Source: a virus. From it: a stretch of 64,000 nt of DNA. Shown one piece after another: positions 7,563 to 49,331 of the stretch. The stretch is taken from the IMG/VR virus record IMGVR_UViG_3300022700_000208, positions 17,646 through 81,645 of that record. One strand, given 5' to 3'. Numbering within the stretch: position 1 is the first letter of the stretch; each line of letters opens with the position of its first letter. A model generated the notes under the pieces. It was not told the DNA's origin and did not search any database. It worked only from the letters and a program-made list of their open reading frames with translations. A program made the translations under genes and the position numbers.

Positions 7563-7793
7563 ATGAAAGCACCGAGTCTAAAAAACCTTGTTTTGGAGGC
7601 CAAGATCCCTGAGGAGGATTTAGATCAGATCCATACTATGGCTCAGGACGGTGCCGATCCTTCAGGAGCTATATCTCACCTTGGCAAGAAATTTAAAGTA
7701 AACCCACAGGAAGTTGAGAGCGCTTTTAAGAAGCGTTTTGGGAAGTCCCCTGGGGATATGGCCAAGGAAAACCAACCAGACGGTGATGATTGA
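7563..7793 (+). CDS. leader-bearing small protein (MKAPSLKNLVLE|AK)
   Basis: ATG at 7563; variant of the shared leader. Confidence 0.55.
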   Translation: MKAPSLKNLVLEAKIPEEDLDQIHTMAQDGADPSGAISHLGKKFKVNPQEVESAFKKRFGKSPGDMAKENQPDGDD

Positions 7794-7864
7794 TTTTGAA
7801 GGGCTCATCCCTTGCTGAAGGTCAGTTGCTGCTGCCCCATTCTGAGGGCGCTGAGCCCTTTAAA
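7794..7864 (+). other. multi-branched RNA stem-loop
   Basis: TTTGAAGGGCTCA / TGAGCCCTTTAAA closing stem with internal hairpins CCTT-GCTG-AAGG and GCCC-CATTCTGA-GGGC. Confidence 0.45.
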
Positions 7865-7892
7865 TTATGCCTAGCGTTATTAGGAGTTGTTA

Positions 7893-8045
7893 GTGTCAGA
7901 CGCTAATAAGTCAGAACAATCTGTTAATGCCTTGGGGGCCATCCCCAAGGCAGGAATAGCTGTAGTTAAGGCAAAAAATGTCCAAAGGTCTCGAAGAAGG
8001 GCCAAGGAACTCCTTAAAAAGATGAGGAATGTAGGGGTTGAATGA
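7893..8045 (+). CDS. 50-aa protein (not in ORF track)
   Basis: AGGAG SD at 7882-7886, GTG start: MSDANKSEQSVNALGAIPKAGIAVVKAKNVQRSRRRAKELLKKMRNVGVE*. Confidence 0.55.
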   Translation: MSDANKSEQSVNALGAIPKAGIAVVKAKNVQRSRRRAKELLKKMRNVGVE

Positions 8046-8313
8046 ATGCCAGGTATCAGGCTGCCATGAACATGGAGATTATTTCCCCGTACTTTTACTC
8101 AGAGAACTCGACGATGATCCCAATTCTAAGCATGTTGAAGAAACTGTCCTCTTTCAATTCTATTGCGTTCACCATATTAAAGACCTGACCTGGGAAGACA
8201 TAGTAGATCCCCTGGTTTGGGAGGATATAAACAATGAAAGGCTCAGACACGACCTTGAGGTTTTCGACTCTAGCATTTGTGATTTTCAGTGGCGTAGTTC
8301 TCTTGATGAGTAG
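8038..8313 (+). CDS. hypothetical Cys/His protein
   Basis: CxxxxC..CxxH pattern. Confidence 0.5.
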   Translation: MNECQVSGCHEHGDYFPVLLLRELDDDPNSKHVEETVLFQFYCVHHIKDLTWEDIVDPLVWEDINNERLRHDLEVFDSSICDFQWRSSLDE

Positions 8314-9439
8314 CGGGTGCGCATCAAAAAGGTTTGTGGTGGAGCCTATAGATGCCAAAATTCCTGAACTTAAGTTTGAGTATTGGAAGGATGGTTCCTG
8401 GCATCCAGCTCATGGCCATGCTGGGGCCTATTTCTCGGAATCTGATAAGAAAAAATTCCGAATTAAAACCCACAAAGAGGGTGGGGATTGCCAATTTGTC
8501 TATGTAGATGGGGATACCCATTTCACTAGGGAATGTGATGAAAAGAGTGAAATAACCCTGAATTTGGGCAAGTACAGGCAAAACAGTCCTGAGGTTATTG
8601 GTTTTTCAGTGACTATGGAAAATTCAGGAACTCAGCAGGGATACTTTTATCCTCTGATGAGAAATCAATATGAGCCCTTGCCAGTTAGTTTTAAATGCCC
8701 TTATTCTAAGAAAAATGGATCAATATCGGTATGTAGCAGACCTGCAACATATCGGTTTCTTTTTGATGTTAGTATAAAGTCTCAGGGGGAGGGGGATCTT
8801 CTCTTTACCAGGAAATGCAATGGTGAGGAGAAGATTTCTGAAACCCTTAATGTGAGTGGTCCAGAAACAAAAACCCTTTCCATTTCTTCAGATAAAGCTA
8901 ATTTTTGTGTAGTTGGGCTGGCTTTAAGGCAAGGATCAACCCGAAAATCACAAAGGATCTATGTAAGATTTTATGATCCTGAGTACATTCCTCTTTCATC
9001 TCCAGAGATAACCAAGAAGGATGATGGGTTTAAGATATGCGCACCTGAGGATTATGAGCTTCTTAGTATTAACGGAAAGGATTATTCCAATTCTTTCTTT
9101 TCAGATTCTTGCAAGACAGTAGAGAGCAGCCATGTTGAGGTTCTTGTTTGGGATGATGTAGGGCGGCTCAGTCGGGTTGTGTCTTCCTTGAATGGCCGTA
9201 AAACTTCCTTGTACCTGAGCCGCATAAATAAGAATAGCACAACCAACTATTTCACTAAGTCCAGATATAGTTGGGGTTTTTATGAGGACTTATACAAATG
9301 GGGTTATCCTAAGCTGAGGGATTATTGTCCTAAAGAAAAGACGGAATGCATGAGAGATAAAGCTAAAGCTCTCATGGATAGTCCCACGGTTATTTCAGCC
9401 GTTGAGAGTTGGGATGGCTCCCTTTTAAAGGGGGACTAA
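8234..9439 (+). CDS. putative Cys-rich lipoprotein
   Basis: Hydrophobic signal followed by lipobox-like SSG-C; multiple cysteines. Confidence 0.6.
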   Translation: MKGSDTTLRFSTLAFVIFSGVVLLMSSGCASKRFVVEPIDAKIPELKFEYWKDGSWHPAHGHAGAYFSESDKKKFRIKTHKEGGDCQFVYVDGDTHFTRECDEKSEITLNLGKYRQNSPEVIGFSVTMENSGTQQGYFYPLMRNQYEPLPVSFKCPYSKKNGSISVCSRPATYRFLFDVSIKSQGEGDLLFTRKCNGEEKISETLNVSGPETKTLSISSDKANFCVVGLALRQGSTRKSQRIYVRFYDPEYIPLSSPEITKKDDGFKICAPEDYELLSINGKDYSNSFFSDSCKTVESSHVEVLVWDDVGRLSRVVSSLNGRKTSLYLSRINKNSTTNYFTKSRYSWGFYEDLYKWGYPKLRDYCPKEKTECMRDKAKALMDSPTVISAVESWDGSLLKGD

Positions 9440-9440
9440 A

Positions 9441-9770
9441 ATGGAAATAAGAAATCTTGCAAGTCACTTAGCTTCCTACGGAGTAACTGTACGGGAGGCT
9501 GAAATTATTTTGGAGGTATCCAAGGGATTCACTAACAAGGAAGTTGCAAGCAAGCTTTTTGTCACAGAAAAAACCATCAAATTCCATCTGACAAATATAT
9601 TTAAGAAGCTCTCTGTAAAAAGCAGAAGCCAATTGATTGTGGCTGTGAATCCTTTAATAAATAAGATTCAACAGTCTCAACCCCAGGAAAAAGAGGAAAA
9701 ACCCAAAGAAGATCCAAGTTTTCCTTCAAACGTGCCAACTCTTCCAGGAGGGCATGAGGTTGATGTTTAG
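9441..9770 (+). CDS. stand-alone LuxR/GerE-type HTH regulator
   Basis: REAEIILEVSKGFTNKEVASKLFVTEKTIKFHLTNIFKKLSVKSR. Confidence 0.9.
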   Translation: MEIRNLASHLASYGVTVREAEIILEVSKGFTNKEVASKLFVTEKTIKFHLTNIFKKLSVKSRSQLIVAVNPLINKIQQSQPQEKEEKPKEDPSFPSNVPTLPGGHEVDV

Positions 9771-10064: not shown

Positions 10065-10302
10065 GAAATGTCCTGTCTGTGGTGTCCTTGAGCGCCATGC
10101 CAGCAATTGCAGGCTTAAAAAAGCAATAGAATCTCATCAAGGAAAGCCACGGGAGCAAAGAAAACAAGCTCATTATCAGAGAGTTTTATCTTCCACGGGA
10201 AAGAACAAAAGAAAGAATACGCTCAAACAATTAAAAATCCAAAAGGAAAAGGAGAAGCGAAATGAACTCAAAGGCGAGCAACCTACTCAGCAAGATCAGT
10301 GA
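10054..10302 (+). CDS. small basic Zn-finger-like protein
   Basis: CPVC..H..C. Confidence 0.45.
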   Translation: MDSRKCPVCGVLERHASNCRLKKAIESHQGKPREQRKQAHYQRVLSSTGKNKRKNTLKQLKIQKEKEKRNELKGEQPTQQDQ

Positions 10303-10522
10303 TTCCAAGAATGAGCAAGATGAGCCCCCAGAGGTCACTCAACTGGCCAAGGATCTGATTGATACTCCCAGCTCGGACAGCAATGATGATCAGGGCCAAT
10401 TTGTCCAGCTCTTAAAGGGCATGGCTTTTTCCAAAGATTCTAATTCTGATGAATTTATGAAGCGTCTCATGGACATGGTAAACCAGAAGAACTTTGGAGA
10501 CCTTACTAAGAAGAGTCAATGA
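10262..10522 (+). CDS. leader-bearing small protein (MNSKASNLLSKI)
   Basis: AAGGAG SD; shared leader. Confidence 0.6.
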   Translation: MNSKASNLLSKISDSKNEQDEPPEVTQLAKDLIDTPSSDSNDDQGQFVQLLKGMAFSKDSNSDEFMKRLMDMVNQKNFGDLTKKSQ

Positions 10523-10722
10523 GGTATAGCTGCCCAAATTGCAAGGCTCTCAGGAAAGAGGAGAAGTTCCATAAGGAGATCAAAGTTCGGGATGTGATTT
10601 ACGAGTGTGGGACTTACCTTAGGCTCTTTCTTTGGGAGAACAATCGCTACAAATGGAATATCAATTGCCAACCAATAGGAGAGGAAAATGAAAGCAAAAG
10701 ATCTAAAAAACCTGGTCGATGA
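10519..10722 (+). CDS. small Zn-ribbon-like protein
   Basis: CPNC...C..C. Confidence 0.4.
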   Translation: MRYSCPNCKALRKEEKFHKEIKVRDVIYECGTYLRLFLWENNRYKWNINCQPIGEENESKRSKKPGR

Positions 10723-10900
10723 AGTCAAAACAGATGAGCAAGAATCTGGAGATATCATGAAGTTTAAGCAGGGAACTGAGTTTGAAGGCTTGGTTGCTCG
10801 TGTCTTGAAACGCAATGAAGACGGCACTGTGGATGTGTACGTAGGAAGCTCCTACAGGCAGGGTGTGTCTGCTGATGATCTTGAGCCAGCTAATGATTAA
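10688..10900 (+). CDS. leader-bearing small protein (MKAKDLKNLVDE), SH3-like beta cargo
   Basis: GAGG SD; shared leader; GDIMKF..ARVL..DGTVDV. Confidence 0.55.
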   Translation: MKAKDLKNLVDEVKTDEQESGDIMKFKQGTEFEGLVARVLKRNEDGTVDVYVGSSYRQGVSADDLEPAND

Positions 10901-12080: not shown

Positions 12081-12269
12081 ATGGAAACACAAGAACAAAG
12101 ACAGTTAAGCAATACTTATAGAAAGTTAAAGACAATTTTCAAACAGGAAGAAAGGGAGTTTTGCCAACCACACTCCCTTCAAACGGATACAAACCACAAC
12201 TGGCATCCCACGGAAACCGCATTCATAGAGGAATGCACTGATTGCAAAAGAAGAAGGTTTATTGACTAA
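12081..12269 (+). CDS. small hypothetical protein
   Basis: AAGGA SD; CxxC near C-terminus. Confidence 0.45.
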   Translation: METQEQRQLSNTYRKLKTIFKQEEREFCQPHSLQTDTNHNWHPTETAFIEECTDCKRRRFID

Positions 12270-13213
12270 TGGCAAAGAAGAAACAACTCACTCCAGAACA
12301 GATAAGACCTCATCTTCCTGACTGTAGGGAATGCGGGGAGAATGAGTGGAATATCCAGGGTAAGAAAGCCTTTAAAATCACCTGTGAGTGGTGTGAGTAT
12401 AAGCTCACCCAGCATGAAAGAAATAAGATCTATAAGGCCATAGAGGACCATGAGGAGTTCCAAGATCCAAACCCCAAGTCGCCTCAGGAAACCAAGGAAA
12501 AAGAGCAGGAAAGGGGCCTAGAGAACTCACAAGGCCCTGATCAGTCCACAGAAGAGGACACAGATAAAGAAAATCCCCATGATCTTGCTGATGAGGTGGA
12601 AAAGAAAATTAAGGGAAATTTCTTCAATACCCAAGCAACAGGAGAGATACCTGAAGAGGAGGATGAGGAGAAATTCCAGAACCTGTCCGAAAAGCAAAAA
12701 ATGTTCTGCCAGGAGTACATCAAGGATTTCAACGGAACCAGGGCAGCCAAGGAAGCAGGATATTCAGAAGATACAGCGCGTCAGACAGCCTCAGAGAACC
12801 TGACAAAACCTGACATTATTCTCTACCTCCAGCACCTCAAAGAACAAAGAATGAATAGGCTCCAGCTTGAGCAAGATGATGTGATCCGTGATCTCCAAAT
12901 CGTAAAGAACCGATCCATGCAAGCCTATCCTGTAAGAGATAGAGAGGGAGTCCCCACTGGACTGTGGACCTATGATGCCAATGCAGCCATCAAGGCAACA
13001 GAACTACTCGGAAAACACCTTGGGATGTTCATAACAAACAAGGTGGAGCATTCTGGAGAGAATGGTAAGCCCATCAGCATAACCAGTGATATTGAGGTTG
13101 AGGCATTATCCACCCAGCAATTGGAATCCCTCAAGGATATCCTGGAGACCTCGGAAAAATATCGTAAAGAGCAGGAAGAAAAAGAAGAAGATGAGAACAC
13201 ACCACTTCAGTAA
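12269..13213 (+). CDS. terS: terminase small subunit with N-terminal Zn ribbon
   Basis: LSEKQKMFCQEYIKDFNGTRAAKEAGYS..ASENLTKPDI and KATELLGKHLGMF (Terminase_2 type); N-terminal CRECG..CEWC. Confidence 0.88.
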   Translation: MAKKKQLTPEQIRPHLPDCRECGENEWNIQGKKAFKITCEWCEYKLTQHERNKIYKAIEDHEEFQDPNPKSPQETKEKEQERGLENSQGPDQSTEEDTDKENPHDLADEVEKKIKGNFFNTQATGEIPEEEDEEKFQNLSEKQKMFCQEYIKDFNGTRAAKEAGYSEDTARQTASENLTKPDIILYLQHLKEQRMNRLQLEQDDVIRDLQIVKNRSMQAYPVRDREGVPTGLWTYDANAAIKATELLGKHLGMFITNKVEHSGENGKPISITSDIEVEALSTQQLESLKDILETSEKYRKEQEEKEEDENTPLQ

Positions 13214-14016: not shown

Positions 14017-14021
14017 TGTGG

Positions 14022-14043
14022 TAGGGGAGTATATACTCCCCTA
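14022..14043 (+). terminator. palindromic hairpin, probable terminator
   Basis: TAGGGGAGTATATACTCCCCTA directly after a stop codon, followed by a T-rich tract. Confidence 0.55.
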
Positions 14044-14158
14044 TTCTCATTTTACCTCTTATGTATGAATAATCTATTCTCTTTCTGGACGTAAGTATCT
14101 GAAATCAGGAGGGGAATGGAATATACATACACAACCAGATGTATAGAATAAGATATAC

Positions 14159-14419
14159 ATGTCTAAGAATACGTGCAGAAAATGTAAGCATTTTAGAAAA
14201 CACCGATTATCCTCTATGGATGGGTTCTGTCTGAACAGTGTGGGCAATAAACCAGTGAATTATTCTTTTTACTGTCCAATGTTCACTCATACTTTAGGTG
14301 CTACCGAAGGGAAGAAACATGGGAAGAGCCAAAAACCTAGTGCAGGAAATAAGTGGCAAGACCTCGATTTCCCAGATAATCCTGGACTTCCGAAAGGCTA
14401 TCAAAGGGAAATTCAATAA
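14159..14419 (+). CDS. small Cys-rich protein
   Basis: CRKCKHF..C..C. Confidence 0.45.
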   Translation: MSKNTCRKCKHFRKHRLSSMDGFCLNSVGNKPVNYSFYCPMFTHTLGATEGKKHGKSQKPSAGNKWQDLDFPDNPGLPKGYQREIQ

Positions 14420-14528
14420 GAGAACATCCAAGACAAATTTCACTGCTAAGGGTGCTGTTTTTGAATTTGATTATGAGGATGGTGTTCGCTACCGAGTAAC
14501 TGTGGAGTCCCTGGAGAAAAAGAAATGA
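14319..14528 (+). CDS. leader-bearing small protein (MGRAKNLVQE|I)
   Basis: Internal ATG at 14319 gives the shared leader. Confidence 0.55.
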   Translation: MGRAKNLVQEISGKTSISQIILDFRKAIKGKFNKRTSKTNFTAKGAVFEFDYEDGVRYRVTVESLEKKK

Positions 14529-14767
14529 GTGATAAGTCAGATAATGTAAGACATCTCCCCTCTCTAGGAGATAATCCTAAAGGACTCATCCATAATGTCC
14601 AGCAGGAAGTGGATGATCTTGATGATGTGTTGGTGATTGGAAGGAAAAAGGATGGTGGGGTTAGTGTCTGGTCTACCCGTTCAGAGGCTTATTATTTTGG
14701 GGCCTGTCAGGCCATAATCCAAGACCTGACCTTGGCATCCTTTAATGGGGATATCGTCGATGAGTAA
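14525..14767 (+). CDS. hypothetical protein
   Basis: ATGA overlap with previous gene. Confidence 0.55.
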   Translation: MSDKSDNVRHLPSLGDNPKGLIHNVQQEVDDLDDVLVIGRKKDGGVSVWSTRSEAYYFGACQAIIQDLTLASFNGDIVDE

Positions 14768-15014
14768 GGCTGACAGGCTTCTACAGCTTTGTGAGGTCCT
14801 AAGCCAGGAGGAGGTTGAGGACCAGGCTCAGGTTCTCATTTCCCTGCTCCGCAAAAGTGAGGACAAACTGGAGACAGCGGCTGAGTGGCTTAACTCCAAG
14901 GATTTCCAGGACAAGGACCGAAAGAAGATTGGCCAGGAGTATAAGAGTCTGGCCAAAAATCTTAGAGATCTGCCCAGTTGGGAAGACATTTTGAAAGAGG
15001 TAGCTAAGAAATGA
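14760..15014 (+). CDS. leader-bearing small protein (MSKADRLLQLCE|V)
   Basis: ATG at 14760; shared leader. Confidence 0.6.
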   Translation: MSKADRLLQLCEVLSQEEVEDQAQVLISLLRKSEDKLETAAEWLNSKDFQDKDRKKIGQEYKSLAKNLRDLPSWEDILKEVAKK

Positions 15015-15478
15015 AAAAGGCAGAAAAACTTTTAGGTCTGGTCAATGAATTGGCTGACAAGACTCTCCAGGATATAGCTAGCAAGGCTGGGGTATCTGTT
15101 GATCAAGTAAAGGACAAGGCTGATGAAATTGAAAAGGGCCTAAAGAAGAATATTGATCCAGATTCTGAGCCAAGGAAATTCTTTGCCATTCTCACATCTA
15201 CTCTCAAGAAAGCCTTTAATGTGGGGGAATCTTTCTCTGAGGCTTATGGTTCTTATGAAGAGTTCAAAATGATTGAGGTCTCAGAGGGTGTTTTTCTCTC
15301 AGAAAAGGATCTAAGGAAAAAAGTCACTAAGGCAGTCAGGAATCTTAAGCTCAAAGCAGATCTTGGTGTTGTCAGACTCACAGAGATTATAACCAAAGAG
15401 CTTGGAATTAAAAAGCCAGCAGCCGAGAGAGCGGTGAAGATTATAATAGGGCAGCTTATACAACAAGGAGTATTGTAA
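15011..15478 (+). CDS. leader-bearing protein (MKKAEKLLGLVNE|L)
   Basis: Shared leader; GAGGT SD. Confidence 0.65.
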   Translation: MKKAEKLLGLVNELADKTLQDIASKAGVSVDQVKDKADEIEKGLKKNIDPDSEPRKFFAILTSTLKKAFNVGESFSEAYGSYEEFKMIEVSEGVFLSEKDLRKKVTKAVRNLKLKADLGVVRLTEIITKELGIKKPAAERAVKIIIGQLIQQGVL

Positions 15479-15802
15479 ATGAATAAGGCGCAGAAACTTA
15501 AGAGTTTGGTTAAAGAAAGATTCAAACATATAAAAGGGAAGTTTCCTGGAATGAGAAAGGAAGTTGAGTGGACCATTACTCCTGTCTCTAATACGGAAGA
15601 TCATATAGTTACAATTCAGTCTGATAAAAGAATTGCTCGAATTGATTTAAAGAGTGGCAAGGCTATGCTTTCTAAAAGCGGAAGAACTACTTTTGTAGAT
15701 TTGAACCCTGCCAGGGGAGCTAAGGAAGTCGATGTTCCCAAAGATATGATCAAAGAACTAGAAAAGATAGGTCCTCAAAAAGGCCCTACGAGACTTGTCT
15801 AA
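15479..15802 (+). CDS. leader-bearing protein (MNKAQKLKSLVKE|R)
   Basis: Shared leader; AAGGAG SD. Confidence 0.65.
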   Translation: MNKAQKLKSLVKERFKHIKGKFPGMRKEVEWTITPVSNTEDHIVTIQSDKRIARIDLKSGKAMLSKSGRTTFVDLNPARGAKEVDVPKDMIKELEKIGPQKGPTRLV

Positions 15803-15814
15803 GGAGGTAATAAA

Positions 15815-16087
15815 ATGAATAAGGCCAGTGTTCTAAAGGAAAAAGTCAATAAATTATCTGAGGCAAAGAAATTTGAGTTCTACGTGAACAAGGATGAGCG
15901 TGGAGAGTTTGAAGCAGATGTTCGCGATCAAAAAGGAAAAACAGTATGGGAAGGTGATACTGAGATGTTCAATGAGCTTATTGAAGATGGATTCATGAAA
16001 AATAAGGAGGATCTTGATGGTCTTGCTGAATATCTTATAGATAATAAGATCCTTCCCAAAGGTGCAGAATTAGTAAAAGCAAATTAA
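15815..16087 (+). CDS. leader-bearing protein (MNKASVLKEKVNKLSE|A)
   Basis: Shared leader; TAAGGAGGT SD. Confidence 0.65.
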   Translation: MNKASVLKEKVNKLSEAKKFEFYVNKDERGEFEADVRDQKGKTVWEGDTEMFNELIEDGFMKNKEDLDGLAEYLIDNKILPKGAELVKAN

Positions 16088-16097: not shown

Positions 16098-16316
16098 ATG
16101 AGCAAGGCAAAACAATTGACAGAAAAGTTGGATGTGGATGAGAAGGTCAAAGAAGGTGATACTTTTAAAAAAGGGAATATGGAACTGTCTGTCCAGGAAG
16201 TATCAGCCAGTGGAGTGACCTTTGTGATCACGCAAGGCAAGACAACATCAAAGCCTCTTCAAATGGACAGTATTAAAGATTTTCAGGCTTTCCTTAAAGC
16301 CAATGATTTTAAGTAA
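16098..16316 (+). CDS. leader-bearing protein (MSKAKQLTEKLDVDE|K)
   Basis: Shared leader; TAAGGAG SD. Confidence 0.65.
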   Translation: MSKAKQLTEKLDVDEKVKEGDTFKKGNMELSVQEVSASGVTFVITQGKTTSKPLQMDSIKDFQAFLKANDFK

Positions 16317-16329: not shown

Positions 16330-18897
16330 TTGGCATCTAAGAGTAACTGGCAATGGCAAAAAATGGAAAAACGAGATTCGTTCGATATAATAAGGAAGTC
16401 TCTAGCCAAGAGAAGGCTATTAGATTTTACCCAGCACACAAAGCCAAATTACAAAGCAAATTGGCACCATAAACTGATATGTGACAAGCTTGATAAGTTT
16501 ATAGAAGGTAAGATCAAAAGACTGATGATCCTAATGCCTCCTAGGCACGGTAAACAAGTTTCTTTTGATACTCCTGTTTTTACTCCTTCGGGTTGGACAA
16601 TCCATGGAGATCTTCAAGTTGGTGATGAGGTGTTTGGCCCTGATGGGAATCCTACTAAAGTGATAGCTTTAAGTGAGGAGTCTTATCAAGATATTGAGGT
16701 AGAATTATCTAATGGTCAGATTATTGAGTGCCATGAAAATCATGAGTGGTCCTTTTATGATAGGTCTCGTAGGGTTTGGAGAACTAAAGAGACAAATTGG
16801 TTTTTAAATAGGAAAGTTGTAAGTTCAGGAAGATGTATATTTCAACTTCCTAATATCAATCCTCTTTATTTTGCTGAAAAAAATCTTGAGGTTGATCCTT
16901 ATTTTCTTGGAGTGTGGTTAGGAGATGGAACATCAATTAAGCCTACTCTGAATTTGTGCTCTGATGATGAGGGTTATATATTATCTGGAATCCCCTATAA
17001 TTTTAGCTCTAGGGCTGTCCATAAAGATACAAAGGTCCCAAGTATAAATTATTATGGGGAAGTCAAAGATAATATTGAAAAATTAGGTCTTTTCGGGAAT
17101 AAGCATATTCCAAAAGATTATTTATACTCATCTTTAGAACAGAGAGTTCAACTTTTGGCAGGTCTTATTGATTCAGATGGGCATGTTGAAAAAGAAGGAA
17201 GAGTTAGGTTTGTTAATACAAATAAGGATTTGATTGATGGAGTTTATGAGCTTCTCAGAACACTCGGACAAAGACCTTATCTTACTTCTCAGGAAGCTCA
17301 TAGCAGTACAACTCTTCCTATAAATTCTGACAAAAAATGTTATGCAGTAGGTTTTCAGCCTACAATTGATATACCTACTAGGGTTCCAAGAAAAAAGATA
17401 AAGAGGATTGTAACTCAGAGAAGAGTTGGGATTAAAGATGTAAGGAGAGTTGATAAAAAGACTAAAGGAAATTGCATTCAAGTTGATAGGGAGGATGGTC
17501 TTTATTTAGTTGGGGAGAGTCTTATCCCCACACACAATTCAGAATTAGTTAGTAGGAGACTTCCTGCTTACATATTTGGGAAAAATCCAGATGCTCAGGT
17601 GATCTCAGCCACGTATGGAGCTGAGCTATCACAGAGATTGAATAGGGATGTTCAGAGGATTATTGATTCTGATCCTTATAGAGATTTGTTCCCAGAAACA
17701 CAGCTTTCTTCCAAGAATGTAAAGACAACCTCAAAGATGAGTTATTTAAGAAACTCAGATATCTTTGAGATAGTAGGAAGAAAGGGAGTTTATCAGTGCG
17801 CTGGAGTTGGAGGCGCATTGACTGGTATGGGAGCCAATTATGTGTTGATTGATGATCCCTTTAAGAACCAGGAAGAGGCAGACTCCCCGACGATAAGAGA
17901 AAAAGTTTGGGATTTTTATTCCTCTGTTCTTTATACCAGGCTTGAAACCCAGCTCAGTGATGGAAGCGTAGTCAATAGTGATGGGGGAATTCTTCTTACT
18001 ACAACCAGATGGCATGAGGATGATTTAGCTGGAAGGCTAATCACTCAAATGCATGAAGATCCTGAGAATGCTGATCAATGGGAGATCATCAATCTCCCAG
18101 CAATTATTGAAACTCAGGAGGAGGAAGAAAATTCTATTGATCCCAGGGTAATGGGAGAGGCTCTTTGGCCTGATAAATTTGATGAGAAAAAGCTTCACGT
18201 TATTAAGTCCACTCTTGGTTCCAGAAAGTGGGCTGCTCTTTATGAGGGAAGACCTGCTCCTGATAAGGGAGACATTGTAGAAAGAGAGTGGTGGCAATAC
18301 TATACAGATCTTCCTGAAGAGCTTGATTTCAAGCTTATTTCTGTGGACTGTGCTTTTAAGGGAACCAAGAAATCAGACTTTGTAGCTATACAGGTCTGGG
18401 GCAAAAAAGGAGTTCACAAATATCTGATCCATCAGGTTCGAGCCAAGATGGGTTTCAATGCAACTGTGGAGGCTATCAGGCAAGTTAAATACAAATATCC
18501 TGATGCTATGGAAGTTCTTATTGAGGAAAAAGCCAACGGGGCGGCTGTTATAGAAAGTCTTAAGAGTGAGATTGAGGGAGTAACTGCCTTCAATCCTAAA
18601 GATTCTAAAGAGTCCAGGGCCAAGGCTAATGCTGTGGCTCCCCAGATTGAGGCTGGAAATGTTCATATTCCCGATCCCTCAGTTGCTTCTTGGGTTGGTG
18701 ATTATGTTGAAGAGTGGGCTGTGTTCCCGAACAGTCAGAATGATGATCAGGTGGATGCCACATCTCAAGCTCTTATCAAGATGCATCAGACAGCCTATGA
18801 ATGGGTTGATGTGGTTGATCATCTTGAGCAGGGAAAAGGCATTGAAGGTCTTCCTCCAGAAGTGGCTGAGCAACTTTGGCCTAATCATGCTGGATAA
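16330..18897 (+). CDS. terL: terminase large subunit (intein-containing)
   Basis: Walker A MPPRHGK|S, Walker B VLIDDP, TRWHEDDLAG, nuclease SVDCAF, IEEKANG, NDDQVDATSQ. Confidence 0.93.
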   Translation: MASKSNWQWQKMEKRDSFDIIRKSLAKRRLLDFTQHTKPNYKANWHHKLICDKLDKFIEGKIKRLMILMPPRHGKQVSFDTPVFTPSGWTIHGDLQVGDEVFGPDGNPTKVIALSEESYQDIEVELSNGQIIECHENHEWSFYDRSRRVWRTKETNWFLNRKVVSSGRCIFQLPNINPLYFAEKNLEVDPYFLGVWLGDGTSIKPTLNLCSDDEGYILSGIPYNFSSRAVHKDTKVPSINYYGEVKDNIEKLGLFGNKHIPKDYLYSSLEQRVQLLAGLIDSDGHVEKEGRVRFVNTNKDLIDGVYELLRTLGQRPYLTSQEAHSSTTLPINSDKKCYAVGFQPTIDIPTRVPRKKIKRIVTQRRVGIKDVRRVDKKTKGNCIQVDREDGLYLVGESLIPTHNSELVSRRLPAYIFGKNPDAQVISATYGAELSQRLNRDVQRIIDSDPYRDLFPETQLSSKNVKTTSKMSYLRNSDIFEIVGRKGVYQCAGVGGALTGMGANYVLIDDPFKNQEEADSPTIREKVWDFYSSVLYTRLETQLSDGSVVNSDGGILLTTTRWHEDDLAGRLITQMHEDPENADQWEIINLPAIIETQEEEENSIDPRVMGEALWPDKFDEKKLHVIKSTLGSRKWAALYEGRPAPDKGDIVEREWWQYYTDLPEELDFKLISVDCAFKGTKKSDFVAIQVWGKKGVHKYLIHQVRAKMGFNATVEAIRQVKYKYPDAMEVLIEEKANGAAVIESLKSEIEGVTAFNPKDSKESRAKANAVAPQIEAGNVHIPDPSVASWVGDYVEEWAVFPNSQNDDQVDATSQALIKMHQTAYEWVDVVDHLEQGKGIEGLPPEVAEQLWPNHAG
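16555..17538 (+). mobile_element. class-3-type intein with LAGLIDADG endonuclease in TerL (328 aa)
   Basis: Begins QVSFDTPV, ends LIPTHN|S; HENHEW (W), GNCIQV (C), PTHN (T) form the WCT motif; LLAGLIDSDG. Confidence 0.88.
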
Positions 18898-19307: not shown

Positions 19308-20052
19308 AGATTCCTATGGAATTATAGGCCAGATCAAAGGCCCCAATAATCCAATAGAGGTAGAAGGTGGAGATTCCGTCAATTGGGAAGGTCACTGGAT
19401 CTATCTCAATAATGGCCGAGATCCAGGAGGTAAAATAGTCAAGACTACTTCCAGGTATGTGAGTTTTTTTGAGGTGGGCTTTGGGGCTTATGCAAGGCAT
19501 CCCAAGAAAAGCCAAACCAAGCATGGTTTTGGGGCCTATTATAAAAATCCATGGCAGGGATGTATCTCCAGGGACCAGCTAAGAGGAATTCTGGCTGCCC
19601 TTATCTCAGGTGGGGAGTATTTGGCTATGCTGAGGCTTATTCTTCACCATGCCCTGAGAGGCTTCATATTTGCCTACAACACGATTGAAAATGGGGATGA
19701 TCCCGACACAGCCCCCTGGAAGCTACCAGATCTCACAGGGCCTGACATTTGGGCTATGGAGCTACGGGGGTTTGGCCTGGCCAGTTGGCTCTTCTGGCCG
19801 ATACTGTGTCTGCTCGATATCTACATGCTTTTTAATGCAGTGTTCCATAATCATAAGGAAACCCAGCATGTGATCAGTTTTTCTATCACCCTGCTTGTTT
19901 GTGTTGAGAATGTTCCCACCCCCACGAGCTTATTGGCTAAATATGTGATCGACAGGGATGAGCTATTATCAGAGCTTTATAAGTATTGGTGCAATTGGAG
20001 AGAAAGCTGTGAAATCTATCATGCTTATGAAAAGAGGTTGAATGCCCTATGA
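19300..20052 (+). CDS. hypothetical membrane-associated protein, possibly an enzyme
   Basis: EGGDS and SRDQL motifs; hydrophobic C-terminal helices. Confidence 0.55.
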   Translation: MNRDSYGIIGQIKGPNNPIEVEGGDSVNWEGHWIYLNNGRDPGGKIVKTTSRYVSFFEVGFGAYARHPKKSQTKHGFGAYYKNPWQGCISRDQLRGILAALISGGEYLAMLRLILHHALRGFIFAYNTIENGDDPDTAPWKLPDLTGPDIWAMELRGFGLASWLFWPILCLLDIYMLFNAVFHNHKETQHVISFSITLLVCVENVPTPTSLLAKYVIDRDELLSELYKYWCNWRESCEIYHAYEKRLNAL

Positions 20053-20342
20053 GCAAAGCTAATGATCTTAAGAACAAGGTAAAAGACATCAAGATGAAAG
20101 AAAAATCCACTGGGACCACTGGGGTTGGTGGATCGGAAGTCTCCCATACCCATGGGTATGTGATTGATGAAAATGGTAATGGGAAGACCACATCTACCTC
20201 AGAGGGAGAGGATCATATTCATCAGATCACTGAGTATGAGGTTCAGCCTGCACCTCCAGGCAATCATGTTCATCCTTTGGAGAAAAAGGATGATAATGGG
20301 GATGCAGGAAAGCCTATAAATCAGAGAGGTAAAAAGAAATGA
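20049..20342 (+). CDS. leader-bearing His-motif protein (HTH/HIH/HVH)
   Basis: MSKANDLKNKV leader; three HxH motifs. Confidence 0.6.
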   Translation: MSKANDLKNKVKDIKMKEKSTGTTGVGGSEVSHTHGYVIDENGNGKTTSTSEGEDHIHQITEYEVQPAPPGNHVHPLEKKDDNGDAGKPINQRGKKK

Positions 20343-20548: not shown

Positions 20549-20957
20549 GACAGAAGAGGAAGACACATTCTATGATGTGGATGGCAAACTGGCCAAGAAA
20601 TTGGATGGTCCCCCTAAGAATATGAAAAAATCCAAGGAGAAAAAGTTTGCCATGATCATTGGGGGAGATACAGCCGTTGTATTCACCTCCCCTTCGGATA
20701 AGGAAGCCAAGCAGGACACCAAGAATAGAGTTGAAAAGGATGATCTCAAGAATGCTGTCCTGGCTAGAAAGGTGGGAGATCTTCCTGATAGTGGTGAGGA
20801 GATTTTCCAAGCATTTATTTCTTTTGCAGATAAAGACAAAGAGGAAACCAAATCAGCTAAGCTAAAGAACCTAGTTCAAAACACAAGGAATCCTCTTCAG
20901 AATACTCCTTATCCATTTGATAAGAAGAAAAAGAGGAAGCGTTATGAAGAAAGCTAA
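20529..20957 (+). CDS. hypothetical protein
   Basis: Paralogous in part to 29801-30367 (acidic, A..A.V.RKVG); internal KSAKLKNLV. Confidence 0.5.
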   Translation: MLSENIKTEEEDTFYDVDGKLAKKLDGPPKNMKKSKEKKFAMIIGGDTAVVFTSPSDKEAKQDTKNRVEKDDLKNAVLARKVGDLPDSGEEIFQAFISFADKDKEETKSAKLKNLVQNTRNPLQNTPYPFDKKKKRKRYEES

Positions 20958-21234
20958 AAAGCTCAAACAATCAGTTGAGAAAGCCTATGGGCCTGATTTT
21001 GATAATCTTAAGAAAAATCGTGTTGATCTCACCAATGCTGAGAGGGAAAAGATTATGAGATCTCATGCTTATTGGCATCACGGTAGAAAAGGAAGGGCAA
21101 CTCCAGCTATATTCAAAGCAATGATTGGTGGGTGTCCCTATTATGTTCCCCATACTCACAGGGCTTACAGATGCCTTAGAACCTTAGATGGGGCTATCAA
21201 CCAATTCCACAAATACATTAAACAGACAGCATAG
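20944..21234 (+). CDS. leader-bearing basic protein (MKKAKKLKQSVE|K)
   Basis: ATG at 20944 after GAGG SD. Confidence 0.6.
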   Translation: MKKAKKLKQSVEKAYGPDFDNLKKNRVDLTNAEREKIMRSHAYWHHGRKGRATPAIFKAMIGGCPYYVPHTHRAYRCLRTLDGAINQFHKYIKQTA

Positions 21235-22228: not shown

Positions 22229-22531
22229 ATGAGCAAAGCAAAAAGAATTCTTTCAGAAATGGACATGGTGGAGCAGAGGCTGGAGAAGGAACTTCAGCCT
22301 CTCTTTGATGAGCTTGAGAATCAAAGCTTTGTTAAAGACATTGATAAGACTGATGGGACAGAGCTTGATGTGACTGTTGTCGATAAGCGGGGTAAAGCTG
22401 ATGTTCTTACTCTGGCCTGGGATGATAAGAACAATGAATATGTCTGGTCAGATTTCAGCAAGGATACTCCTATCGGTAAGAAACCTGAAGATGCCATCAA
22501 GTGGCTCAAGAAAAAATTGAAGGTTAGGTAA
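22229..22531 (+). CDS. leader-bearing protein (MSKAKRILSEMDMVE|Q)
   Basis: Shared leader. Confidence 0.65.
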   Translation: MSKAKRILSEMDMVEQRLEKELQPLFDELENQSFVKDIDKTDGTELDVTVVDKRGKADVLTLAWDDKNNEYVWSDFSKDTPIGKKPEDAIKWLKKKLKVR

Positions 22532-22786
22532 ATGTCTAAGGCAAAGAAGCTATTGGACAAAGTGGAAAACAATAATGAGGCTGTGGTCAAGGATGCTCTC
22601 AAAGTTATTAAGAAAGCCACTCCTGAGGAGCTTCTCCAGATCATGAGCCAATTAGAAAGAAGATTTGAGGATGATAAGGAACTTAATGGCCTTTCCAAGG
22701 TTATGAGTCAGATAATCAAAAAAGTTTCTAAGGCCAAGTTTGGATCAGTCAAGAAAGTATCGAATAAGTCCCTCATGGTTAAGTAA
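22532..22786 (+). CDS. leader-bearing protein (MSKAKKLLDKVENNNE|A)
   Basis: Shared leader. Confidence 0.65.
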   Translation: MSKAKKLLDKVENNNEAVVKDALKVIKKATPEELLQIMSQLERRFEDDKELNGLSKVMSQIIKKVSKAKFGSVKKVSNKSLMVK

Positions 22787-34994: not shown

Positions 34995-35780
34995 ATGGCT
35001 TTTGAAATTATCAATAATTTTAAAGGAAGAAAGACAATCAAGGTAAGAAACCAAGAACCTCTTGTTTTCCCAAATCCTGGGGATTCCCTCAAATTCAACT
35101 CTTTTAGTGAATATTTACCCTATCGTGACATGATCATTGCCGAGATTCAGAGGAATCATCTGAAGTGGAAAGGTGAGCCTTTTGAAGAGGATACTCTTCC
35201 ACCCAAGCAAGGCAAAATTAACAGCAAGGATGAAATATCCCCTAAAGGGGTTGAGTACAATTGGACATCTGTCCAAGAGACTCAAAAAGGAGAGGCTACA
35301 GTTCAAGAGCTTAATGGAGAGCAAAGAACTCTTATGGAGGAAGATTCTCCTCAATCTCAGGAGCAGCAGCCACAACCTTCTGAGGCCATTCAGAAATTGG
35401 CTAATGCTCAGCCTAGTGAGGATGATGAGGTGGATACAACTCCTGTTCATGAAAAAGTGAAAGAGCTTACTGAAGAAGAGAAATCTTCTCAGCCTTCTGG
35501 AGAGGAAAAGGAAGCTAGTCAACCCCAGACAAAGAAGAAAAAGAAAAAGAAAGCAAAGGCATCCAAAAAGGCTTCTAAAAAGAAAACAGCTAAGAAAAAA
35601 GCCTCCACTAAACAATCATCGGATGAGGCTTCCTCTGGAGATTTAGGGGCTAAAAAAGAACAGTTGGCTCAATTGACTGAAAAGCTCAAGACCACTCCCA
35701 GAGATCAGATGGAAAGAAGGACAAAGCTTAAGAGCCAAATGAAAGAGATCAAAAAGGAAATTGCTCAGTTAGAAGGCTAA
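34995..35780 (+). CDS. hypothetical protein with Lys/Ala-rich H1-like tract
   Basis: KKKKKKKAKASKKASKKKTAKKKAS. Confidence 0.6.
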   Translation: MAFEIINNFKGRKTIKVRNQEPLVFPNPGDSLKFNSFSEYLPYRDMIIAEIQRNHLKWKGEPFEEDTLPPKQGKINSKDEISPKGVEYNWTSVQETQKGEATVQELNGEQRTLMEEDSPQSQEQQPQPSEAIQKLANAQPSEDDEVDTTPVHEKVKELTEEEKSSQPSGEEKEASQPQTKKKKKKKAKASKKASKKKTAKKKASTKQSSDEASSGDLGAKKEQLAQLTEKLKTTPRDQMERRTKLKSQMKEIKKEIAQLEG

Positions 35781-37038: not shown

Positions 37039-37329
37039 ATGAGCCGAGCCAAACAATTATGCGAAAAGCTTTCTGGAAAAGATGAAAGTCAGAATACTCT
37101 TGATGAGGGAATGCGCGAGACTATTAAGACCATGAATTCCAAGCAAATGGCTGAAGCTTCAAGAGTAATGCAAGAGCGCATTGATGAAATTCTTGATCCT
37201 AAGGGACAACCTCCTTTTCCTGCTGGTCCCAAGTCAGTAGAGAAGATGCAAACAGCTAAAGAAAAGCTGGACTATGCTGACAAAATGCTTCGCAAAGTCC
37301 GTGAAAGATACGACGGTAAGAAGAAATAA
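37039..37329 (+). CDS. leader-bearing protein (MSRAKQLCEKL..LDE|G)
   Basis: Shared leader; GGAGG SD. Confidence 0.65.
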   Translation: MSRAKQLCEKLSGKDESQNTLDEGMRETIKTMNSKQMAEASRVMQERIDEILDPKGQPPFPAGPKSVEKMQTAKEKLDYADKMLRKVRERYDGKKK

Positions 37330-37331: not shown

Positions 37332-37757
37332 ATGTCTCGATCAATCCTGGAAGTATTTGAAAAACAAGAACAAGATAATAATCGTCGTTATCTTGAATAT
37401 TTGATGGCCTACTATTCTTCCAGGATTATGGTCTTCCAGAGGATTCAAAACCGAAACAGCAAGGTTTATGGTGATGCTTCTGGATCAGTTTCTAGGGAGC
37501 CTCTTGAGGAGATAGAGGGTATTGTTCTTTCAGATGATATGGTCCCTGTTTCCACATTTTCGGCTGGTACATTTGAGGGAGGAGTAATCCTTACCAGGAA
37601 TGAGCAGCCAAACTTAGTTGGGAATGATATTCAGATCATAAGGGATGATTCCAAAGAACGCTTTTTCCATGTTCATTCTAGAGAGGCTCATGGATTTACC
37701 ACTGAAACTTTTGTGAAATACAGGATTGCTTCAACGGAACCACATGAAGGCTCGTAA
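37332..37757 (+). CDS. putative head closure/neck protein
   Basis: Position, size and beta-rich sequence. Confidence 0.35.
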   Translation: MSRSILEVFEKQEQDNNRRYLEYLMAYYSSRIMVFQRIQNRNSKVYGDASGSVSREPLEEIEGIVLSDDMVPVSTFSAGTFEGGVILTRNEQPNLVGNDIQIIRDDSKERFFHVHSREAHGFTTETFVKYRIASTEPHEGS

Positions 37758-38016
37758 ACTAAAAGAAACAGTGAAACAGGCAAGAAAAGCTCTTGATGAA
37801 ATGAATCTTCAAGATGCAGCCGAAGTTATTAGTAGACAGATTAATAATTCTGGTAAATATGAGTCTATTGCCAGGAAGTCGAGAGTTTATCTTTCTATGC
37901 CTGTGGATACTAAAATGAGAGCCTTCATTAAGGAAATAGCTATGGATGTTGGTGTTGAGGTTGAATACCTGGACAAGGGGAAGATCATCGAAGTGAAACC
38001 TCCAGAGATCGCTTAA
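37744..38016 (+). CDS. leader-bearing protein (MKARKLKETVKQARKALDE|M)
   Basis: ATG at 37744; leader variant. Confidence 0.5.
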   Translation: MKARKLKETVKQARKALDEMNLQDAAEVISRQINNSGKYESIARKSRVYLSMPVDTKMRAFIKEIAMDVGVEVEYLDKGKIIEVKPPEIA

Positions 38017-38017
38017 T

Positions 38018-38689
38018 ATGCCTGAGAATATTGCAGGGAGTCTCAAACAAGTTAAATCCTCCGCTGTTTTTCCTCTGGAAATTCTTATGGAGGAATTTAA
38101 GAATGAGATTCCCTATGTACGTGTTGTCTATGATGAACAGCTTGAATATGAGTCTGTGATCACAAAACTGAGAAATGATGAGGCATTCACTACTCAAGGT
38201 CTCAGTCAGATTCCTGTAGTGGCATACAATCGGAGTGTTCTCAGACATGCCCAAGATGCAGGGCCAGGAAGAAGGGCAGGAAGAATTCTGTCTAAAGGTC
38301 CAAAGCAGGGAGATCCCAATTCTCAGCTTATATATAGGTGGGTTCATGGGGAGTTTGATCTTAATTTTCGGTTTTTTACAACCAACATGGATCAATTGGA
38401 AAACTTTGAGATCTCTTATTTGGGTGAGGAAGGAATATCGGGGATTAGAAATTTAGACGTTAATATCCCAGATATTGGAGATTTTACTTGGTTTGTTCAT
38501 CCCAGGGAATTGACAGAGAAAGTTATCCAAATTGAACAGGCTTACCATAAGGTAGTTGAGGGTAGCCTGGTTGTTAGAGGCAACTACTTTATTCTTAGGA
38601 ATGAGGCTAAAAAGATTCTCACTGTTAATGCCAAGATTAACAATGAAGGTGGGACAGTTACTCATTCTGATTTACAAGTAAATGCATAA
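38018..38689 (+). CDS. putative tail completion/terminator protein
   Basis: Position upstream of the sheath gene; size. Confidence 0.4.
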   Translation: MPENIAGSLKQVKSSAVFPLEILMEEFKNEIPYVRVVYDEQLEYESVITKLRNDEAFTTQGLSQIPVVAYNRSVLRHAQDAGPGRRAGRILSKGPKQGDPNSQLIYRWVHGEFDLNFRFFTTNMDQLENFEISYLGEEGISGIRNLDVNIPDIGDFTWFVHPRELTEKVIQIEQAYHKVVEGSLVVRGNYFILRNEAKKILTVNAKINNEGGTVTHSDLQVNA

Positions 38690-47706: not shown

Positions 47707-47737
47707 ATCTTAAATTTTCCGTTTTCCTATTGGGAGG
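47703..47737 (+). promoter_or_regulatory. candidate late promoter motif, copy 3 (overlaps spike SD)
   Basis: GTAAATCTTAAATTTTCCGTTTTCCTATTGGGAGG. Confidence 0.5.
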
Positions 47738-47744
47738 TTGAGTT

Positions 47745-48512
47745 ATTTTTGTCAAACCTGCTGAATTCATAGAAAAGTCCAAACACTTCAAGTCAAGTTG
47801 GAAAGGTGAGGTTGTCGATAACCAAGATCCTGAAAAACTTGGCCGAGTGAAGTGCAATATACCTGGACTAATAGAGGGTTCAAAGGAACAACTTCCCTGG
47901 GTATTTAGAAGATCCAATAGTCTTCTTGGAGGAACAGGTAAAGATGGGGGCTTTGCGGTCCCCAAAATGGGAAGTGAGCTTGAAGTTATATTCCCTTTTG
48001 AAGATCCCTACACACCTGTTTATGTAGGTTACTGGGAATCTCGGGCCACTCATCCAACAGCTTTTGATGAGGACTATCCCAATATTCTTGGCTATGCTGA
48101 TGAGGAGGGAAACTCCTTTAGTCTCAACAGAAAGAGTCAAGAGGTAAAAGTCACTCACAGTTCAGGAACTTTTGTTTTGGTTGATAAGGATGGAAATCTC
48201 AATCTTGAGGGAGTGGCTAAGCTTGTATCGACGATTAAAGATGAAATCAATTTGACTGGGGAAAAAGGTCTTACGGCTGTTCTTCAGGCAGCCTTGTCTC
48301 TTGAAGCTGGAGAGGAGGCCACAATAACAGCACCCAAAGTTGAAATGGGAAGTGAGTCTGTTGGGGTTTTGGATAATAGGGTGAAACAGGATCAAGCATT
48401 GGCAAAAATCACTGTTCAAACTCCTGTGGGGCCAGCGGCTCCAGTATCAGCGGCTCCTCAATTTTCCCAGCTTCAGAAAAACACTCAGGATTTGAATGGA
48501 ATTAAGGCTTAA
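47745..48512 (+). CDS. baseplate spike (gp5/gpV OB-fold), probable ATT start
   Basis: Frame is open upstream of GTG at 47847 through WKGEVVDNQDPEKLGRVK; GGGAGG SD lies 7 nt before ATT at 47745. Confidence 0.8.
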   Translation: MFVKPAEFIEKSKHFKSSWKGEVVDNQDPEKLGRVKCNIPGLIEGSKEQLPWVFRRSNSLLGGTGKDGGFAVPKMGSELEVIFPFEDPYTPVYVGYWESRATHPTAFDEDYPNILGYADEEGNSFSLNRKSQEVKVTHSSGTFVLVDKDGNLNLEGVAKLVSTIKDEINLTGEKGLTAVLQAALSLEAGEEATITAPKVEMGSESVGVLDNRVKQDQALAKITVQTPVGPAAPVSAAPQFSQLQKNTQDLNGIKA

Positions 48513-48515
48513 TAG

Positions 48516-49085
48516 ATGCTTGATCCACTTCCTGATTGGGTAGACAGATTAAAACAAATGCCCAGTGTGGGTACATCCCAGGAAGGGGCAGAAAATCTTG
48601 CGAACTTTTACGGGGATCTTGCTGATAAGGTAACGGCTGAGGGATCTCCTCCTCTTTTTACTTTTAATAGGCAAGTATTTGCTTCCACTCTTCTTTCTCA
48701 AGGATTTGGCCCAACAGGAGGAACTGAGTGGGTACAGAAAATAGGGACAGCTTTTGAGGCAGGAGTGGCCCAAGGAACAATCACTCCAGCCCTTAAAGCA
48801 GATCCTAGGTGGACGGCTTCAGGATCGGATGTTCAAACACCTTCTACGGGAGCATCCGTTATTCTGACTTTGAGTATAGCAAGATCCACTCTTGAGTCAG
48901 GATTAATTTCAGCCACTCAAGGATTTTCACAAACTGAGAATTCAGATCAGGCAGATAGTTCTCAGGAAAAGTTTGCTCAGGCATGGAGAGATGCAACTCT
49001 TGAGTTTCAATTCACATTGATTGGACTTATTGTAGTTCCTCCATCAGGGACAGCTCCTCTGCCTCTTACTTTTAATGCTCAATAG
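48516..49085 (+). CDS. hypothetical spike-associated protein
   Basis: Position between spike and gp25-like genes. Confidence 0.45.
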   Translation: MLDPLPDWVDRLKQMPSVGTSQEGAENLANFYGDLADKVTAEGSPPLFTFNRQVFASTLLSQGFGPTGGTEWVQKIGTAFEAGVAQGTITPALKADPRWTASGSDVQTPSTGASVILTLSIARSTLESGLISATQGFSQTENSDQADSSQEKFAQAWRDATLEFQFTLIGLIVVPPSGTAPLPLTFNAQ

Positions 49086-49094
49086 GAGATTAGA

Positions 49095-49331
49095 ATGAAT
49101 AAATCAGAGCAACTTCTCAAACTAATTGAACAAACATCAGACAAAGAAACGAGTAAAAGCAAAAAAGACAAACGAAAAGAGGGTGAGAGGCAAGATCCCA
49201 ATCACCCTCAAACTACTTTCCATCAATATAAAAAAGAAGAACCTGATTCCTATGGATTAGATGGTGAGGGAGAAAAAGAAAACGATAAAGATAGTAAGGA
49301 TAGTTCTCACCACAATAAAAAGGATAAGTAA
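49095..49331 (+). CDS. leader-bearing disordered protein (MNKSEQLLKLIE|Q)
   Basis: Leader variant; AGGAG SD. Confidence 0.5.
   Translation: MNKSEQLLKLIEQTSDKETSKSKKDKRKEGERQDPNHPQTTFHQYKKEEPDSYGLDGEGEKENDKDSKDSSHHNKKDK

Follow-up and report, generated by a model that had tools for sequence, protein, structure and literature searches.

A shared N-terminal peptide on unrelated open reading frames in the head module of an uncultured virus lineage is a candidate capsid-targeting propeptide

Introduction

Encapsulins load diverse cargo into a shell of HK97 fold by means of a short terminal peptide, which is usually C-terminal, is not cleaved, and binds the shell protein directly. The prohead protease of phage T4, gp21, cleaves at a hydrophobic motif, (L/I)-x-E. 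The T4 capsid-targeting sequence (CTS) comprises the first 10 residues of IPIII, of which residues 4 and 7 mainly serve targeting and residues 8 and 10 processing, and exchanging the cleavage-site Glu for Asp prevents processing but leaves targeting intact (PMC9026906); the internal proteins of T-even phages are diverse, with the CTS alone conserved (PMC3012670); and T4 head propeptides are 10 to 20 residues long, with the S77-type proteases of T4, phiKZ, 201phi2-1, and SPN3US all cutting after Glu (PMC5694885). Examined here is a 64,000-nucleotide stretch of DNA from an uncultured T4-like phage (the window), bases 17646 to 81645 of the 81.6-kb IMG/VR virus record IMGVR_UViG_3300022700_000208 (CheckV completeness, 52%), in which some two dozen open reading frames (ORFs) start with a common 12- to 13-residue peptide (the tag). 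Computational analysis showed that the tag is selected as a peptide, portable, located mainly in the head module, lineage-wide, and covarying within genomes. It may be an analogue of the T4 CTS, a capsid-targeting propeptide of different sequence and with a far larger cargo set, a reading to which a probability of roughly 0.55 was assigned. A literature search, mainly of open full texts with few subscription journals, found no paper on this tag or on the head proteins of this lineage.

Results

Genes were called with a simple ORF and ribosome-binding-site (RBS) caller, which yielded 92 genes in the window, all on the plus strand. The consensus of the N-terminal tag is M-S-K/R-A-K-x-L-L-x-x-phi-x-E (phi, hydrophobic), with residues 4, 7, 8, and 11 on one helix face. 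An initial annotation of the window had proposed such a leader on about 24 genes, and all 24 starts were ATG codons opening ORFs of 69 to 948 amino acids (aa), most with a Shine-Dalgarno sequence. A strict regular expression (^M[SNKG][KR]A..[LIFVM][LIKTVQSEC]) matched 19 ATG starts on the plus strand of the whole 81.6-kb record, all among the listed ones; the single match on the minus strand was a spurious 58-aa antisense ORF inside an ATPase gene, and none of the minus-strand genes in the first 14.8 kb of the record matched. With a position-specific scoring matrix (PSSM) derived from the window, these 19 starts scored 16.2 to 27.2 and the next of 643 ATG-initiated ORFs scored 8.8, a separation that is circular by construction. 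A model-free all-against-all comparison of 91 proteins gave 62 similar pairs at residues 2 to 13 versus 1 at residues 32 to 43. A further matrix (the family PSSM; tag threshold, 6) drew on 103 proteins of other phages alone, members of the conserved tagged family described below; when it was applied to 100 plus-strand genes (window and a few upstream), the 19 highest scores all fell to listed genes (Mann-Whitney test, P = 1e-12). Looser variants were supported with a one-residue register shift at 10262 (13.7), 10688 (10.1), and 49095 (11.5), while the genes at 7563 (3.7) and 37744 (1.9) were inseparable from background, and unlisted genes at 11047 (12.0) and 4113 (10.5) scored like the supported variants. 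The shared leader is real; a fair count is 22 solid members, 2 marginal ones, and 2 extra candidates.

Codon usage within the tag was varied. Ala4 was encoded by GCA in 8 window tags, GCT in 5, GCC in 4, and GCG in 2; both AGY and TCN were used for Ser2, and six codons were used for Leu7. The same codon was shared at identical tag residues at a rate of 0.34, compared to 0.37 expected from codon usage, and the DNA upstream of the tagged genes had only the Shine-Dalgarno sequence in common. Since codons are free at conserved residues, the tag is conserved as a peptide and not as a DNA repeat. The randomized codons and upstream DNA that shares the RBS alone rule out a signal at the RNA level as well as a DNA repeat or a recombination cassette. 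The tag block covers residues 1 to 13 at the extreme N terminus, and its single internal occurrence in the proteome is in a gene fusion.

Beyond the tag, the proteins are unrelated, as the initial annotation had maintained. When the first 16 residues were removed, all-against-all BLASTP of the 24 proteins produced no pair below an E value of 0.04. A diverged paralogue family was accordingly rejected at the BLASTP level, with very remote paralogy of small helical proteins possible. No PHROG match below an E value of 1e-3 was found for any of the 23 small tagged proteins, and Pfam scans of 6 of these 23 gave nothing above thresholds. A word-index homology search with the 227-aa protein (21543) among 5.8 billion proteins returned only the query itself, and the ESM Atlas gave no feature matches for 15011 and 21543, with template modeling (TM) scores below 0.5 on low-confidence models. 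No recognizable cargo function was found in the Pfam, PHROG, homology, and ESM Atlas searches. Orthologues in relatives and tag dialects were analyzed with a two-strand gene set in which several window genes, including tagged 20944, 22229, and 23128, were missing and 10688 was shortened. With this set, from which three tagged genes were thus absent, BLASTP found no orthologues of the small tagged genes in eight relatives. These relatives keep the portal, the protease, the major capsid protein (MCP), and, where the fragment reaches, neck and tail genes, and they carry other tagged genes at comparable places.

Tagged genes were concentrated in the packaging/head/neck module at 14.05 to 38.02 kb, where 20 of the 24 start, compared to 39 of the 92 genes overall (Fisher's exact test, P = 2.8e-6). 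They make up 20 of the 39 genes of that module and occupy the gaps between the genes for the small and large terminase subunits (TerS and TerL), portal, protease, MCP, and neck proteins. The clustering near terminase, portal, and protease described in the initial annotation was therefore borne out; its statement that core genes lack the leader holds in general but fails for a tagged 948-aa protein, which is an AAA ATPase.

A phi-x-E motif with Glu at residues 10 to 16 was present in 16 of the 24 tagged proteins, compared to 10 of 76 other N termini and 62 of 348 internal windows (Fisher's exact test, P ~ 1e-6). With the range widened to residues 10 to 23, the counts were 21 of 24 and 19 of 76, in line with the earlier observation that most leaders have a hydrophobic-x-Glu near their end. 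In relatives, the motif was found in 37 of 54 cases versus 57 of 262, peaking at residues 12 and 13; this selection is circular in part, given that the PSSM by which the tags were chosen favors Glu at these positions. A T4 gp21-type prohead protease (Peptidase_S77), as had been predicted, is encoded at 31896-33380 (PF03420, 38.8 bits; cutoff, 27; phrog_207, E = 3e-32). Its S77 domain forms the N-terminal half, and the C-terminal half is long, acidic, and, by eye, apparently coiled-coil-like. The MCP, of the Gp23 family (33470-34903; PF07068, 47.8 bits; cutoff, 24.4), belongs to a family with a conserved phi-C-E-E-x-G-N motif, here at residues 66 to 72 and about 35 residues before VQPI, which we take to be roughly where the T4 gp23 maturation site would be expected.

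The tagged 948-aa protein (25939-28785), analyzed by Pfam, phmmer against PDB, and a family search, consists of the tag, a classical AAA ATPase split by an intein, a linker, an internal tag copy, an acidic domain, and a basic tail. The intein was placed by eye at about residues 121 to 470, in the nucleotide-binding region (Hom_end_hint, E = 4e-18; homing endonuclease, E = 3e-7). The part after the intein matched PF00004 (26.3 bits; cutoff, 21.2), and the best PDB match of the ATPase was Cdc48/p97 D2 (E = 2.7e-19), with NSF and FtsH-type proteins also matched. The internal tag copy, SRASKLLEEMD (residues 692 to 702; 28012-28044), is the only one in the proteome and is conserved in the L035 orthologue (580 aa), which has no intein.

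An exhaustive phmmer search with the segment from the internal tag copy onward retrieved 125 family representatives. Of these, 105 are stand-alone proteins of about 100 to 370 aa, in at least 105 clusters at 50% identity, whose N terminus coincides with the tag position; 27 of the 105 fit a strict-like regular expression and 39 reach a PSSM score of 6, compared to 0 of 105 at an internal control position. In the other 20, an additional N-terminal stretch the size of the ATPase precedes the family module, and the tag often occurs at both places. The family layout is a tag, a linker, an acidic domain of about 100 residues, and a conserved Lys/Arg tail, and its only PHROG match was phrog_1053, of unknown function (19 of 31 members). 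The family gene follows the portal gene, directly or a few genes on, in six of seven family-bearing loci (L040 to L045; the L046 fragment does not include the portal). On this head-module family the tag is ancestral, and it is older than the ORFans. Thirteen further viral contigs (L047 to L059) matched just the Lys/Arg tail (residues 171 to 234) and presumably encode proteins of the phrog_1053 type from other phages. In L040 and L042 the ATPase has a gene of its own, without the tag in L040 and with it in L042. No copy was found in G003 (a 54-kb contig, TerL to baseplate) or in the head regions (20 kb each) of L041, L043, and L044, all four contigs being incomplete. It follows that the ATPase cannot read the tag throughout the lineage.

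The tag is lineage-wide. Scores of at least 6 with the family PSSM were reached by 44 of 227 genes in the seven family-bearing loci (L040 to L046), compared to 5 of 413 in distant T4-like loci, counted after overlapping G003 loci had been deduplicated by protein sequence; Fisher's exact test against the distant loci gave P values of 3e-16 for L040 to L046 and 1e-10 for the window (19 of 100). The set that had been called unusually large is so relative to T4 but typical within the lineage.

Tag versions are genome specific, such as MGKF.DLL in L040, MSKA.EII in L043, and MKLAEKIL in L044, and the conserved family protein carries the version of the genome that encodes it. In L041 (7595-14055), two versions stand side by side, MSKA.E.LEKI (at least 5 genes) and a MITSKEMLDFL type (about 6). 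With tags picked by a family PSSM score of at least 4 and a protein length of at least 55 aa, criteria that let in a few starts without the tag (e.g., MSKKEEVKRVVHP), tag similarity was 14.3 within genomes and 8.9 between genomes, a difference that 0 of 5,000 label permutations reached. Codons are shared no more often than expected in the window and only modestly more often in some relatives (G002, 0.76 versus 0.52; L040, 0.60 versus 0.43); the dialects are therefore most simply read as coevolution of the tag with a common phage-encoded partner.

Similar starts were also seen in other phages. In the distant T4-like locus L020 (MCP about 25% identical), three adjacent genes of 128, 189, and 402 aa (16369-18552) have their own 12-residue start, M-x-x-x-S-I-I/F-x-x-L-N-E, the comparison having covered the tag alone; this trio suggests that lineage-specific CTS-like tags are widespread. 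Two adjacent large genes of L024 (7781-10993; 311 and 721 aa) both start with MADY.xLL. The isolated phage RHph_TM30 (L003) has a tag-like start (MSRSSELLNKVYPNAIVE/DD; family PSSM, 11.2) on gp285 (37991-38308), at the syntenic neck position, which offers a possible experimental entry point.

Individual tagged genes, all on the plus strand, were assigned by an ORF and Shine-Dalgarno check, the strict regular expression, the family PSSM, or the shifted-register score (a slash follows the last residue of the tag where given). Tagged ORFans matched by the strict expression and scored with the family PSSM are located at 14319-14528 (69 aa; MGRAKNLVQE/I; score, 6.2), 14760-15014 (84 aa; MSKADRLLQLCE/V), 15479-15802 (107 aa; score, 5.0), 15815-16087 (90 aa), 16098-16316 (72 aa), 20049-20342 (97 aa), 20944-21234 (96 aa), 22229-22531 (100 aa), 22532-22786 (84 aa), 22797-23117 (106 aa), 23128-23487 (119 aa), 23756-24103 (115 aa), 29237-29569 (110 aa), and 29571-29801 (76 aa; MSKAKNLLTLVSE/A). 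Assigned by the strict expression were ORFans at 15011-15478 (155 aa; MKKAEKLLGLVNE/L), with a weak, subthreshold helix-turn-helix-like match beyond the tag; at 21543-22226 (227 aa; net charge, -19); at 28883-29221 (112 aa), where the start was picked for its strong RBS; and at 37039-37329 (96 aa) in the neck region, where relatives have tagged genes at the syntenic place. Variant tags include one with an extra residue at 10262-10522 (86 aa; MNSKASNLLSKI; supported at a +1 shift), one without residue 2 at 10688-10900 (70 aa; MKAKDLKNLVDE/V; -1 shift), and one at 49095-49331 (78 aa; MNKSEQLLKLIE/Q) before a gp25-like baseplate gene, assigned by its shifted score and by synteny with a G003 gene that starts with MSKAKDLLEEL. 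The marginal members are at 7563-7793 (76 aa; MKAPSLKNLVLE/A), at background level, and at 37744-38016 (90 aa; MKARKLKETVKQ), with a weak RBS. As for the unlisted candidates, an HNH endonuclease (PF01844; 11047-11418), upstream of TerS, starts with MGSKSKRILEILSD, and its orthologues in L035, L004, and L043 have different starts; a 407-aa protein (4113-5336), outside the head module and without a Pfam match, starts with MASKKSFDLKKLETQ.

Other recognizable genes of the window include those for TerS (12269-13213; PF03592, E = 1.5e-25), TerL (16363-18897; phrog_38, E = 2e-110), and the portal protein (24135-25928; 31% BLASTP identity and E = 3e-80 to the annotated portal of Rhizobium phage RHph_TM30). 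The 844-aa TerL has PHROG matches in two separate stretches plus matches to primase/DnaC-type families, the latter probably reflecting an intein; the terminase ORF of G003 is 1710 aa long. Between portal and protease, a conserved protein of unknown function, p30910 (30910-31782), is kept in relatives, occurring in 6 of the 8 used for the orthologue comparison and in all 7 family-bearing loci, and might be a tag receptor or a core protein. A 261-aa protein directly after the MCP (34995-35780) has a long acidic stretch followed by a lysine run (KKKKKKKAKASKKASKKK), with no family match and no orthologue in the relatives. Sheath and tube proteins and an SbcCD-like nuclease are also encoded, and the baseplate-type genes have matches among genes annotated as baseplate in RHph_TM30. 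Among isolates, Rhizobium phages of the Kleczkowskaviridae come closest (MCP, 43% identical), and at least 120 uncultured MCP relatives were found; megablast with the portal-ATPase region found no match in the phage collection. Scans for sigma-70 promoters and terminators remained at shuffle level, except for a strong terminator-like hairpin at 14020-14045 (11-bp stem, T-rich tail) between TerS and the first tagged cluster.

Discussion

Read as a capsid-targeting propeptide, the tag would be a portable address label that some phage-encoded part of the growing prohead recognizes. Proteins bearing it would be drawn into the prohead core, where the gp21-type (S77) protease would cut after the terminal phi-x-E Glu and free the mature proteins inside the head, in the manner of the T4 CTS. 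The cargo would comprise the conserved acidic/basic protein encoded beside the portal gene, sometimes the Cdc48-like AAA ATPase, and about 20 fast-changing ORFans per genome, which would be retained in the virion and perhaps ejected. An effector role of the tagged proteins, in antidefense or host takeover as the initial annotation had proposed, is speculation. A still more specific version, in which a prohead-core receptor coevolving with the tag forms a private loading code, any tagged newcomer is packaged and coinjected, and each phage thereby holds a rapidly renewable arsenal of 10 to 25 ORFans, in some phages together with a Cdc48-like AAA+ unfoldase delivered to the host, is unlikely.

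Several observations weigh against capsid targeting. Eight of the 24 window tags have no phi-x-E with Glu at residues 10 to 16, relatives show no enrichment of the motif at residues 14 to 20, and phi-x-E may belong merely to the helix motif. The tag sequence differs from that of the T4 CTS, as the initial annotation had noted, with all T4 N termini falling below the family PSSM threshold of 6 (ipI, -12.1; ipII, -4.4; ipIII, -2.5; gp24, 4.3). Four tagged genes lie outside the head module (7563, 10262, and 10688 upstream and 49095 in the baseplate module, a place that holds a tagged gene in G003 too), and a tagged AAA ATPase would be an odd internal cargo. The T4 late promoter TATAAATA is not enriched (3 matches versus 2.0 expected) and is uninformative; "late" expression of the tagged genes is suggested only by gene order. 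No isolate carries the conserved family (tblastn against 50,697 phage records gave no match), and a search for N-terminomics of the nearest isolates found none.

The tag could instead dock proteins, possibly uncut, to the exterior of the neck or portal, the baseplate, a decoration site, or a chaperone, which would make the tagged proteins exchangeable accessory parts or assembly clients; this is conceivable but doubtful. Such docking would fit the recurrence of tagged genes after homologues of p35784/p36484 (in the window, L004, L037, L041, L044, L045, and RHph_TM30) and ahead of the gp25-like baseplate gene (in both the window and G003), and the within-genome dialects point to a common phage-encoded partner but not to its identity. 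Most tagged genes, however, sit between those for TerS, TerL, portal, and protease, and the family to which the tag is native, encoded next to the portal where T4 has prohead core genes, has an acidic domain and a Lys/Arg tail. The tail of this family aligns weakly with that of T4 gp68, and most tags end in the type of motif cut by S77 proteases, which also argue against docking.

It is quite unlikely that the tag is a signal for the Cdc48-like AAA ATPase, for a host AAA+ protease (a degron), or for a modifying enzyme and so controls turnover, unfolding, or modification. A classical-clade AAA ATPase is encoded beside tagged genes, and 20 of the 125 family modules stand behind an extra ATPase-sized N-terminal part, as expected of such a signal; against it, no AAA gene was found in the incomplete contigs G003, L041, L043, and L044, all with many tagged genes, and the ATPase is itself often tagged. 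Pfam scans of 29 window proteins or protein parts showed no radical-SAM or other modifying enzyme, and phage-specific dialects would not be expected of a degron read by the host.

That the shared start is a functionless by-product of gene birth or shuffling (a copied RBS with the first codons) or of A-rich initiation codons is very unlikely, since, although MSK/MNK starts are common in phage genes, codon sharing exceeds expectation in G002 and L040, and two L041 genes have identical first 16 residues, codon sharing in the window is at expectation with only the Shine-Dalgarno sequence shared upstream, conservation extends to residues 7, 8, 11, and 13, farther than an initiation effect would reach, a family of at least 105 clusters begins with the same peptide, which is also internal in fusions, and just 5 of 413 distant-phage genes score as tagged.

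If the tag is a loading signal for the capsid, the packaged, probably injected protein set of an uncultured lineage would be readable from sequence, and there would be a first functional handle for about one-fifth of the genes in the window, where database searches give no match. The CTS principle of T4 would then scale from three proteins to dozens, with tag and receptor coevolving into genome-specific dialects. The ORFans would form a defined pool to screen for antidefense or host-takeover activity, and T4-like capsids could be loaded with foreign proteins by using the tag as a second, orthogonal handle.

The described system most like the tag is the T4 CTS of IPI, IPII, and IPIII and the propeptides of gp24 and Alt, which in the T4 record read MKTYQEFIAE/A (ipII and ipIII), MAKINELLRE/S (gp24), and MELITELFDE/D (Alt). 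In both systems, a short N-terminal peptide with hydrophobic residues at positions 4, 7, and 8 and, for most of the tags here, a phi-x-E end precedes otherwise unrelated, fast-evolving proteins, in a phage with an S77 protease and a Gp23-type capsid. The T4 peptide has 10 residues, compared to 12 or 13 here. T4 has 3 to 5 tagged genes at separate loci, whereas the window has about 22 to 24 (approximately a quarter of the 92 called genes; 19 of 100 by the independent profile) interleaved with head genes. The tag thus appears CTS-like in layout but not a member of the CTS at the sequence level.

The giant phages phiKZ, 201phi2-1, and SPN3US likewise have many head-internal proteins cut after Glu by an S77-type protease, and the SPN3US paralogues gp53 and gp54 share an identical 15-residue N terminus with cleavage motifs (PMC5694885). 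They differ in that most propeptides exceed 100 residues and the motif is A/S/G-x-E, and no common tag is described in the available part of that source (PMC5694885). The phage examined here is not of the giant-phage lineage, because its MCP relatives are Kleczkowskaviridae-like.

The conserved tagged family resembles T4 gp68 in that its gene adjoins the portal gene upstream of the protease gene and in its Lys/Arg-rich tail, RKRKK-x-LK-x-RK-x-GL in both. The similarity to gp68 was not significant (hidden Markov model score, 3.8 bits; compositional bias, 15.5; E = 0.013 versus 10 sequences; tail only). With no counterpart of the acidic domain in gp68 and no link found in Pfam or PHROG, the family may be regarded as a positional analogue, not a shown homologue. 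Beyond what is known of the T4 CTS kind, the lineage has a conserved anchor family, covariation of tags into genome-specific dialects, and a tagged AAA ATPase.

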